DNA of 64,000 nucleotides from an uncultured Erysipelotrichaceae bacterium (GTDB lineage: Bacteria > Bacillota_I > Bacilli_A > RF39 > UBA660): the NCBI GenBank assembly GCA_902793375.1, contig CADBDE010000003.1, forward strand, positions 30,039 to 94,038, read 5' to 3'. Within the stretch, counting starts at the first letter, position 1, and each line of letters starts with the position of its first letter. Shown piece by piece: positions 61,972-62,994 of the stretch. The position numbers were made by a program, and so were the translations under genes. The notes below the pieces were generated by a model that saw nothing but the letters and a program-made list of their open reading frames with translations, had not been told where the DNA came from and did not search any database.

Positions 61972-62994
61972 TTAAATACTAAAGTTACTAAAGAAATCAT
62001 CTTTCACATTTGCACGACGAGATCTATTACGCAACTTCATAAGAGCTTTTGATTCAATTCGGAGTATTGCTTTAGGTGTTACACCAAACTCTTCAGCGAT
62101 TTCTTTAAGCGTTCTTGGTTTCCCATCTCCAATTCCAAACCTTAGTCTCAATACTTTTTCTTCTCTATCAGTTAAAGTTAGTAAAATAGCATCCAATCTT
62201 TCATCATCGACACCCACTAAATCATATAATTTATTAAACGTTAATAATTCTTCTTGTTCTTGTTGCTCTTTTTCTACCGCTTCTTCAGATATATTCTCAC
62301 CTAATTCATTTAAAGCAGTTGAAGCATATTTTACAAACTTTATTGTTTTTCTTGTTTTATTTTTATATTCTTCACATAATATTTTTTCATTATTTAAATA
62401 AGTATCATCACGTGTAACAAACAAAACATCATATTTTGAATTACATAATAACGATTCCCATATATATTCATCACAAATAGTTAAACTTTTATATCCTCCC
62501 TTATCACTTCTTGGTACTCCACCTAAATTGTTTCTCTTTATTGCTTCATTATAAGCAAAATCATTGTCTTTGATTATTATTGTGTGACTATTTTCAATGA
62601 TCTTATTAAACATACTAAGCACAATATCTTTGTTTTCATCATTTATCATTTTTTCTATTTCATTTTTTAATGGAATATAACTTTCTTTTATTTTAGAAAC
62701 TAATTTAGCATTATCCTTATTTAGTTCAGTTATTTTTTCTGTAAAAATCCCAAGCGGTTCTAAATTAAACATGTTATTTGTGATTTGTTTCTCTTTTGAT
62801 TCAACTTTATCAAATAATCCTTTTAACTCTGTAACCCTATTTCTTTTGAATTCTCTTATAACTTGTTCGGTAATTATCAAATTATTTGATGATGATAGTT
62901 TATCTAGTATTTCTTTATTTTCTTCTTTATATCGATAAAAATCCAAATATTTATTAGTATCAATAAAAATTTTAAGCATATTTGCCACCACCAA
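61972..62994 (-). CDS. Fusion protein: N-terminal PIN-like nuclease domain plus C-terminal sigma-70 region-4 helix-turn-helix
   Basis: N-terminus [13 protein letters not shown] (PIN Asp-1 motif). Later LFVTRDDTY (PIN distal acidic motif). C-terminus [44 protein letters not shown] is a textbook sigma-70 region 4 (RpoD/SigA-like 4.2 HTH). Confidence 0.5.
   Translation of the reverse strand: [340 protein letters not shown]

Follow-up and report, generated by a model that had tools for sequence, protein, structure and literature searches.

PIN_8 and DUF4935 have been listed as VapC-group PIN domains of unknown function with 4-5 conserved acidic residues, usually encoded monocistronically, and the C-terminus of DUF4935 proteins has been described as uncharacterised alpha/beta or variable (PMC5499597). 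A nuclease joined to a helicase in one defence protein is known from Nhi, a PD-(D/E)xK + DUF2075 enzyme (Bari et al., bioRxiv 10.1101/776245), and a sigma-like region 4 within a defence protein has a precedent in MzaA of the MZA anti-phage system (NF041931, PDLC02203). The stretch analysed here, called the window throughout, comprises 64,000 nucleotides of contig CADBDE010000003.1 from an uncultured Erysipelotrichaceae bacterium, and on its minus strand it carries a gene, named PIN-sigma4, whose product joins a PIN_8/PIN_12-type nuclease domain to a region 4 captured from a housekeeping sigma factor. The window protein shares with PIN_8 (PF18476) and PIN_12 (PF16289, formerly DUF4935) the long helical insert after strand 2, the 4-5 conserved acidic residues and a total length of about 300-350 amino acids (aa), while the C-terminal position is held by sigma region 4. 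No description of the PIN + sigma region 4 architecture was found in the searchable literature, where the term PIN_8 is swamped by plant PIN8 auxin carriers, and Matelska et al. 2017 (PMC5499597) does not mention it.

Searches with PIN and Sigma70_r4 profile models gave matches above cut-off for both halves of the fusion, as the initial annotation of the gene had proposed. The PIN_8 profile matched aa 4-192 with 39.0 bits against a Pfam cut-off of 26.1 (E=1e-9). The PIN-type acidic motif read at the N-terminus is present at aa 5-15, and the distal TRDD motif as VTRDD at aa 188-192. Homologues also matched PIN_8, and some of them PIN_12 too. The AlphaFold2 model of the window protein, made with a 29-sequence alignment, had a mean pLDDT (predicted local distance difference test) of 83.4. 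In it, five strands follow the PIN order, aa 38-130 form a long helical insert, aa 232-255 an acidic linker helix, and the C-terminus a helical bundle; the N-terminal domain modelled as a PIN fold, with a parallel sheet flanked by helices. The residues D7-T8-N9, E43, R46-N47-R48, D118, R149, P156-R157-S158, C169-D170-E171, T189, D191 and E204 were invariant in the 29 sequences, among them the candidate acidic cluster D7, E43, D118, D170, E171, D191 and E204. By profile, predicted fold and acidic residues the window protein is assigned to the PIN_8/PIN_12 (DUF4935) group of PIN-like nucleases. The linker that follows has the motif S-x-AL-x-x-(L/I)G-E-x-(I/V)S-x-E-A-x-E-K-E-Q, with S220, G227, S231, A234 and E238 invariant, and it is present in distant PIN_12/PIN_8 proteins and in helicase fusions as well; since the same motif follows the PIN domain across the wider family, the linker is regarded as part of the PIN module and not as sigma-derived.

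The Sigma70_r4 profile matched aa 266-318 with 53.1 bits (Pfam cut-off 24.1, E=2e-14). Sigma regions 2, 3 and 1_2 were searched in the window protein with Pfam and none was found, while the NCBIfam RpoD models aligned at aa ~260-327 only (best 71.3 bits, cut-off 572), so that the lack of a sigma region 2 noted from the letters alone was upheld by both scans. The best solved relative by sequence was domain 4 of S. aureus sigma-A (58% identity, E=1e-17, PDB). E. coli sigma-70 numbering corresponds to the query number +282 (the ungapped PDB alignment pairs 265-323 with 547-605), and columns were compared in 29 family members and 88 true RpoDs. Invariant in the family were E273, R280, G282, L291 and E309 (E. 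coli E555, R562, G564, L573 and E591), L548, L551, F563 and K597 were nearly invariant, and the hydrophobic core and region 4.1 were retained. True RpoD domains scored about 95 bits on the sigma4 profile of the family, level with its own members, and the window sigma4 was closer to the RpoD consensus (543-600; 66% identity) than to its own family consensus (59%), with up to 71% identity to metagenomic RpoDs. In region 4.1 the window protein matches the RpoD consensus at every position, and it is the only member of the family to keep the RpoD-like basic tail. Sequence comparison thus points to capture of the sigma4 domain from a housekeeping rpoD gene.

The C-terminal end had been called indistinguishable from sigma-70 region 4.2; the stretch quoted for this is present at aa 277-317, but five of the six recognition-helix positions (E. 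coli 584-589) differ from the RpoD consensus. At E. coli positions 584, 585, 586, 588 and 589 the window protein reads P, K, A, L and R, where all 88 compared RpoDs carry R, E, R, R and Q, and its changes are concentrated at recognition-helix positions 584-589 (5/6 positions vs 15/52 elsewhere, Fisher p=0.016). We take R584, E585, R586, R588 and Q589 to be the -35-reading residues, after the T. aquaticus sigma-A4/-35 DNA structure. Across the family, position 586 is never Arg and mostly Glu or Asp, position 589 is K, Q or R, and Arg at 584 is found in 17 of the 29 members, with E585 and R588 in 24 each. An operator search up- and downstream of the gene in nine loci found no repeated or palindromic operator, no repeats of -35-like boxes and no TTGACA cluster. 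The promoter-targeted nuclease acting through -35 recognition that the initial annotation had suggested is not supported by these replacements, nor by the surroundings of the gene. The window protein and its 97%-identical relative differ by 4 substitutions in sigma4, 2 of which lie in the recognition helix (A304I, R307Q).

A search of 5.8 billion clusters returned about 30 clusters with the PIN_8 + Sigma70_r4 architecture at 45-97% identity, and six further loci were obtained from a metagenome scan, giving about 35 clusters in all (below, L-numbers denote loci carrying homologues on public contigs, and P-numbers denote proteins). The relatives bearing names were Clostridia metagenome-assembled genomes (MAGs); an entry of the Joint Genome Institute (JGI) bears the label of a sigma-70-family sigma factor, and a partial NCBI entry without sigma4 that of a DUF4935 protein. 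Nei-Gojobori omega for L001 vs L039 was 0.18 in the PIN part and 0.08 in sigma4, and more distant pairs gave 0.06-0.4. Both domains are under purifying selection. The possibility that the sigma similarity comes from a truncated, duplicated or decaying sigma gene fragment, which had been named at the outset as a refuting outcome, was ruled out by the in-frame fusion conserved in about 35 clusters and by a dN/dS (omega) that lies far below 1 for PIN and sigma4 alike.

When 1.84 billion representatives were searched with a profile made from the PIN part, 1804 PIN_12/PIN_8 relatives were recovered, of which only 3 representative clusters carried sigma4 and 2 a DUF2075 helicase. Profile scores fell from about 300 to about 150 bits into the broad PIN_12/PIN_8 (DUF4935) family of 230-400 aa proteins. 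These wider relatives have in common the PIN domain and a linker motif S-x-AL-x-x-IGE-x-x-S...E-x-E-Q, while their C-terminal tails are mutually unrelated and include Zn-ribbons, low-complexity repeats, pentapeptide repeats, helical domains, the DUF2075 helicase and two degenerate region-4.1 remnants. Because the PIN module is constant and the C-terminal tails are hypervariable, sigma4 looks like a swapped-in targeting or sensing module. Among the tails of P0122-P0160 a small CPxCG...WNGxxCxxCG zinc ribbon was very frequent, in a hypervariable pattern typical of sensor domains, and L032 (9965-11920) encodes a distant PIN_8/PIN_12 protein with a pentapeptide-repeat domain after the shared acidic linker motif. 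The PIN part was found in none of 50,697 phage records, and BFVD gave no viral structural match for PIN-sigma4. A phage origin was set aside on these two results, with two weak plasmid PIN matches as the only other hits. The coordinates of the gene, its parts and its neighbours are given in Table 1.

Table 1. Position of PIN-sigma4, its domains and signals, and neighbouring features in the window
Feature	Coordinates	Strand	Remarks
PIN-sigma4 fusion coding sequence	61972..62979	-	335 aa + stop; ATG at 62979 is the likely start
PIN_8/PIN_12-type nuclease domain (putative)	62326..62979	-	aa 1-218; five predicted strands; helical insert aa 38-130
Linker	62203..62325	-	aa 219-259; conserved motif and acidic helix
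Sigma-A region 4-like domain	61975..62202	-	aa 260-335; region 4.1, helix-turn-helix, basic RpoD-like tail
Recognition helix of the sigma4 helix-turn-helix	62029..62079	-	aa 301-317
Ribosome-binding site GGTGGTGG	62985..62992	-	5 nucleotides before the ATG; read directly
Own promoter of PIN-sigma4 gene	62999..63028	-	Extended -10 TG-a-TATAAT (62999-63007), poor -35 TAGAAA; promoter scan
Weak hairpin + T-run	63118..63144	-	Follows immediately on the mTERF gene upstream; fold -9.7 kcal/mol, z=-1.97
mTERF-domain gene	63144-63956	-	Cut off by the window end; PF02536, E=1e-30; full 374 aa in L045 8712-9836
Downstream cassette (context only)	57656..61888	-	Pfam and PADLOC; recurs in L033, L036/37, L044
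C5 DNA methyltransferase	60815-61888	-	Downstream of PIN-sigma4
NOV_C nuclease	59725-60801 or 59725-60813	-	Cassette
MazG-like pyrophosphohydrolase	59401-59715	-	Cassette
GIY-YIG-like/DUF2075 (SLFN-g3) helicase	57656-59389	-	Cassette
Two tRNA genes	6803-6875 and 19848-19930	-	Side observation

The open reading frame (ORF) listed for PIN-sigma4 (61972-62994) reaches back to a TTG at 62994. The ATG was taken as the start because a ribosome-binding site precedes it and because gene callers also give 335 aa on identical public contigs; the exact protein is present in the public collection, and the genes of homologues have similar GGTG-rich ribosome-binding sites. Of the 9 loci examined, 7 have a TATG(T/A)TATAAT extended -10 element 25-35 nucleotides before the ATG, the exceptions being L003 and L038. 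The C5 methyltransferase gene downstream has its own similar promoter (61925-61945, minus strand) and an AGGAGG site. As a separate observation, the extended -10 promoters of PIN-sigma4 (62999-63010) and of this adjacent gene (61925-61945) are almost the same (TATGATATAAT), and the -35 box of each is poor. Upstream, the hairpin with its T-run is a probable terminator splitting the mTERF gene from the PIN-sigma4 transcription unit, and the intergenic region between the two genes contained a single ORF of 22 aa, overlapping the hairpin. Inverted repeats resembling terminators were seen by eye, unfolded, just past the PIN-sigma4 stop codon in L001 and L039. With its own conserved extended -10 promoter and these terminator-like repeats downstream, the PIN-sigma4 gene is an autonomous transcription unit, one that travels through defence islands and mobile-element borders.

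About 13 distinct PIN-sigma4 contexts had usable flanking DNA, and every context with enough of it was a defence island or the edge of a mobile element. Neighbours included restriction-modification (RM) systems, Hachiman (HamA + DEAD), AbiA, GmrSD, KAP/PDC-S49, NERD, Nhi-like DUF2075 and large serine recombinases. For the window, the defence-type island between an RM operon and an mTERF gene that had been described from the sequence was borne out, with mTERF upstream, the C5 methyltransferase and the NOV_C nuclease downstream, and Pfam and PADLOC matches among the neighbours. The search for homologues and their neighbours that had been called for at the outset recovered a conserved fusion in a recurrent setting.

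The order PIN-sigma4, C5 methyltransferase, NOV_C was found in four contexts (window, L033, L036/37, L044). The window, L033 and L044 continue, with or without GmrSD, to the MazG-like gene and then, with or without DpnII, to the DUF2075 helicase; the L036/37 contigs end after NOV_C, and the flanks of the cassette vary by locus. Between the window and L044, identity was 54% for PIN-sigma4, 84% for the methyltransferase, 45% for NOV_C, 78% for the MazG-like protein and 85% for the helicase. The C5 methyltransferase was 84-98% identical across loci and its NOV_C partner 44-45% in L036 and L044; within this RM pair, the nuclease has evolved or been replaced at a much higher rate than the methylase. 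The island of L033, with 97%-identical PIN-sigma4, methyltransferase and NOV_C, diverges from that of the window from the MazG-like gene onward: L033 8644-14631 contains DpnII, another DUF2075 helicase subtype and Hachiman (HamA + DEAD helicase), whereas window 53581-57635 (minus strand) contains a GIY-YIG-like DUF2075 gene, a 265-aa protein of unknown type, NERD-HRDC and a KAP NTPase (PADLOC PDC-S49, 170 bits). This contrast marks a strain-level defence hot spot.

In the remaining loci the surroundings changed further. L038 and L053 have a tight operon of MazG-like gene, PIN-sigma4 and DUF2075, and L001 has the order NUDIX, SRA-NOV_C, a 91-aa helicase remnant, an unknown 496-aa gene and PIN-sigma4. 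In L039, L049, L050 and L052, PIN-sigma4 stands against a large serine recombinase, near NUDIX or lysis-type genes. L003 adjoins AbiA and Abi_alpha, L042 a SocA_Panacea gene, and L040 Macro and ADP-ribosylglycohydrolase genes with an Eco57I-type RM system. MazG-like and DUF2075 genes recur near or flanking PIN-sigma4 in the window, L038 (312-3493) and L053 (203-1826), with NUDIX replacing the MazG-like gene in L001, L049 and L050. Strict co-occurrence with NUDIX or MazG was ruled out by L039 and L049, whose PIN-sigma4 proteins are 98.8% identical and of which only L049 has the NUDIX neighbour. PIN-sigma4 is often, but not obligatorily, accompanied by genes for a nucleotide pyrophosphohydrolase and for an Nhi-like helicase.

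The nearest relatives without sigma4, which make up the sister clade of the family, were L004, P0121 and P0031, in which a PIN_8 domain (47% identical to the PIN domain of the window protein) is fused to a DUF2075/SLFN-g3 helicase of the SF1B type. The fused helicase was 58.6-60.5% identical over about 380 aa to the stand-alone DUF2075 genes beside PIN-sigma4 in L033 and L038, which have a PD-(D/E)xK-looking N-terminus (by eye) and gave weak PADLOC matches to Nhi and AbiO. The window helicase is of a different subtype, 33-35% identical to the L038 type. The L004 fusion (9986-11932, about 640 aa) was observed in a Clostridia MAG, alone between a choloylglycine-hydrolase-family (CBAH) gene and alaS. 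Because it stands alone among housekeeping genes, the PIN + helicase protein appears self-sufficient. It resembles the nuclease-helicase immunity of single proteins, with a PIN domain as the head, and shows the PIN module to be an exchangeable nuclease head. The fusions also hint, in Rosetta-stone fashion, that PIN-sigma4 and the helicase cooperate, though the contexts without a helicase weaken this hint. The MazG-like or NUDIX and DUF2075 genes near PIN-sigma4 may form an undescribed two- or three-gene defence module; PADLOC models gave zero matches to the MazG-like protein.

Our preferred reading, offered tentatively, is that PIN-sigma4 acts as an autonomous single-gene nuclease of defence islands, exploiting the ligands that sigma region 4 binds natively. 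The catalytic effector would be the N-terminal PIN_8/PIN_12 domain, probably metal-dependent and invariant in all its acidic residues, and the rpoD-derived C-terminal domain would be the variable module, in the slot that holds hypervariable targeting or sensing tails elsewhere in the family. Sigma4 could couple the nuclease to the transcription machinery through the beta-flap tip of RNA polymerase at the RNA exit channel, through promoter/-35 DNA, or through proteins evolved to bind sigma4, such as the phage anti-sigma factors G1 gp67 and T4 AsiA. Until sigma4 makes contact, the enzyme would be kept inactive, perhaps through its conserved acidic linker; RNA or DNA would then be cut and the infection aborted. 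Sigma domain 4 is a known target of phage proteins, gp67 in phages of Firmicutes and AsiA in T4, and extended -10 promoters escape this inhibition (PMC3694059); PDB 4g6d is the complex of G1 ORF67 with sigma-A4. The extended -10 promoter of the PIN-sigma4 gene is weakly suggestive of such an escape, in what is an AT-rich Firmicute. For the window protein a protein-protein role of sigma4, as flap docking or bait, is placed slightly ahead of -35 reading because the -35-reading residues are replaced in an otherwise RpoD-like domain, and for most other family members sequence-specific DNA reading is plausible. If the sigma domain is functional, bacteria or their mobile elements have turned a piece of an essential transcription initiation factor into part of an immune or toxin-like nuclease; tethering to the RNA exit channel or promoter, or baiting of phage anti-sigma factors, would either way be mechanistically new for PIN nucleases, and the large DUF4935/PIN_8 family with variable tails (about 1800 representative clusters) would gain a handle on its role.

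Several points weigh against this reading. The nuclease activity, substrate and anti-phage effect of the PIN-sigma4 family are what we infer from its sequences, structure model and neighbours, PADLOC models gave zero matches to the PIN part, and the two retrievable validated PIN defence proteins of DefensePredictor are, by profile comparison, not detectably related to it. For the first of these, DS-3 ('PIN8', WP_022645725.1), a relationship is not supported, with no Pfam match and an hhalign probability of 0.2% against the PIN profile, nor is it for the PIN protein of DS-5 (WP_021513009.1), with agreement in the first motifs only and an hhalign probability of 0.3%. Mean pairwise identity was 49% for sigma4 vs 59% for PIN, and since sigma4 diverges fast while true RpoD region 4 is almost invariant, strict mimicry of the host sigma-A is not maintained. 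DNA binding is plausible for most members, which keep R584, E585 and R588 together with the backbone contacts R562, L573 and K593, and the new K and R at the replaced positions of the window protein are compatible with re-specified rather than lost DNA binding.

Among the other explanations, a decoy or anti-sigma-like regulator had already been suggested by the initial annotation, an idea that agrees with the hypervariability of C-terminal tails across the wider PIN family. Sigma4 would then be an integrated decoy, a bait copied from the host sigma-A domain that early phage proteins routinely attack, in which binding of a phage sigma4-binding protein (gp67/ORF67-like, AsiA-like or a sigma4-contacting activator) relieves the autoinhibition of the PIN domain and aborts the infection. 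We hold this specific form to be unlikely; if true, it would be a bacterial counterpart of the integrated decoys of plant nucleotide-binding leucine-rich repeat receptors (NLRs) and of CapRel-type fused toxin-antitoxin sensors, and the hypervariable tails across the DUF4935/PIN_8 family would be interchangeable phage sensors. Somewhat unlikely is the view that the sigma4 helix-turn-helix is an ordinary DNA-binding domain, which would either guide the nuclease to a motif in DNA, a -35-like hexamer for most members and a re-specified one for the window lineage, or repress the promoter of its own gene or of neighbours, much as if the DNA-binding half of VapB were fused in cis to its VapC-like toxin. 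Besides the contacts listed above, most members keep S/T583, and in the window domain the tail is basic and the recognition face carries a net positive charge; yet R586, usually Glu or Asp here, is never Arg, and the nine loci showed only a generic extended -10 promoter. Recognition-helix residues vary even at 97% identity, as expected if specificity diversifies, but the methyltransferase keeps 84-98% identity where the recognition helix differs, which means that they are not co-specified. The gene comes first, before the methyltransferase and nuclease pair, in four loci, against which more than half of the contexts have no RM partner. Finally, the helicase in place of sigma4 in the nearest relatives is a nucleic-acid-engaging module, but a generic helix-turn-helix need not preserve sigma domain 4 in full, region 4.1 included, with 60-70% identity to RpoD.

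A multi-gene system, in which PIN-sigma4 needs the MazG-like or NUDIX protein and the Nhi-like DUF2075 helicase and is one part of a split PIN-helicase, with sigma4 serving assembly or recruitment, is considered decidedly unlikely. The resemblance of the fusion halves in L004, P0121 and P0031 to the separate genes of L038 and L033, the tight operons of L038 and L053, the MazG-like and DUF2075 genes in the cassettes of the window, L033 and L044, and the NUDIX genes, immediately upstream in L049 and L050 and close by in L001, would all fit it. The partners are, however, missing in L003, L039, L040, L042 and L052, the PIN-sigma4 of L001 is intact beside a mere helicase remnant, the near-identical L039 and L049 proteins differ in their NUDIX neighbour, and the window helicase is of the other subtype; the DUF2075 proteins also resemble the single-protein Nhi and may be independent neighbouring systems. 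A non-immune role is regarded as highly improbable; PIN-sigma4 would then be a housekeeping or mobile-element factor linked to transcription, such as a nuclease for RNA processing that is recruited to RNA polymerase, or a sigma-competitor adjusting host transcription on behalf of a prophage or integrative and conjugative element (ICE). In its favour, several copies directly adjoin large serine recombinases or lysis genes, where prophages and ICEs typically have their cargo, a region 4 on its own could, in line with the earlier anti-sigma idea, compete for the beta-flap, and the function of PIN_8 is listed as unknown (PMC5499597). The distribution is nevertheless patchy and strain-variable, with islands that differ downstream of 97%-identical genes in the window and L033, the neighbours are almost entirely known defence genes, the phage records and viral structures gave no match, and the invariant catalytic residues speak against a purely steric sigma-competitor.

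Comparison with other described systems separated PIN-sigma4 from each of them. The window domain has in common with sigma-70/sigma-A region 4 the three-helix fold and the basic tail, but without regions 1.2, 2 and 3 the protein cannot form holoenzyme or melt promoters, R586 is lost family-wide, and sigma4 evolves far faster than real region 4; identity as a sigma factor was rejected on the missing region 2 and the unmet RpoD cut-offs. The Nhi-like nuclease-helicases resemble the PIN-sigma4 family in having a swappable nuclease head on a nucleic-acid-engaging module. The nuclease of Nhi is of PD-(D/E)xK type, whereas the window protein has a PIN domain and, by Pfam, no helicase, ATPase or P-loop domain; an Nhi-like helicase identity was rejected since the window has its helicase as a separate gene (57656-59389). 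As in VapBC, a DNA-binding-type domain is combined with an acidic segment that possibly masks the active site, here in one chain, with the toxin before the helix-turn-helix, and the latter sigma-derived and not of the AbrB, ribbon-helix-helix (RHH) or Phd type. A VapBC module was rejected, as the gene has no adjacent small antitoxin gene and no small ORF overlapping it, has its own promoter, and is preceded by the gene of the 374-aa mTERF protein and the terminator-like hairpin. CapRel-SJ46 is a fused toxin-antitoxin sensor whose C-terminus is hypervariable across homologues, as in the PIN_8 family, and autoinhibition of PIN-sigma4 by this analogy is purely hypothetical.

The MzaA models aligned to the C-terminal ~65-120 aa only, with 56.9 bits for NCBIfam (cut-off 800) and 40.9 bits for PADLOC, and MzaA is about 700 aa long with an N-terminal part unlike the window protein. 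Identity with MzaA/MZA was rejected, since the sigma4 end alone matches and the eight neighbours scanned with PADLOC had no MZA components; the paper on PADLOC makes no mention of it. An RM controller (C) protein was likewise rejected: the product has 335 aa, a nuclease domain and a helix-turn-helix of sigma type and not Xre type, and more than half of the contexts are without an adjacent RM pair.

mTERF is best known as an organellar, eukaryotic family. Its gene adjoins PIN-sigma4 in the window's lineage only (the window with L045-L048, and the L033/L034 contigs). The guanine-cytosine (GC) content of the window was 21-29% throughout (25%), with a strongly negative GC skew and nearly all genes on the minus strand.

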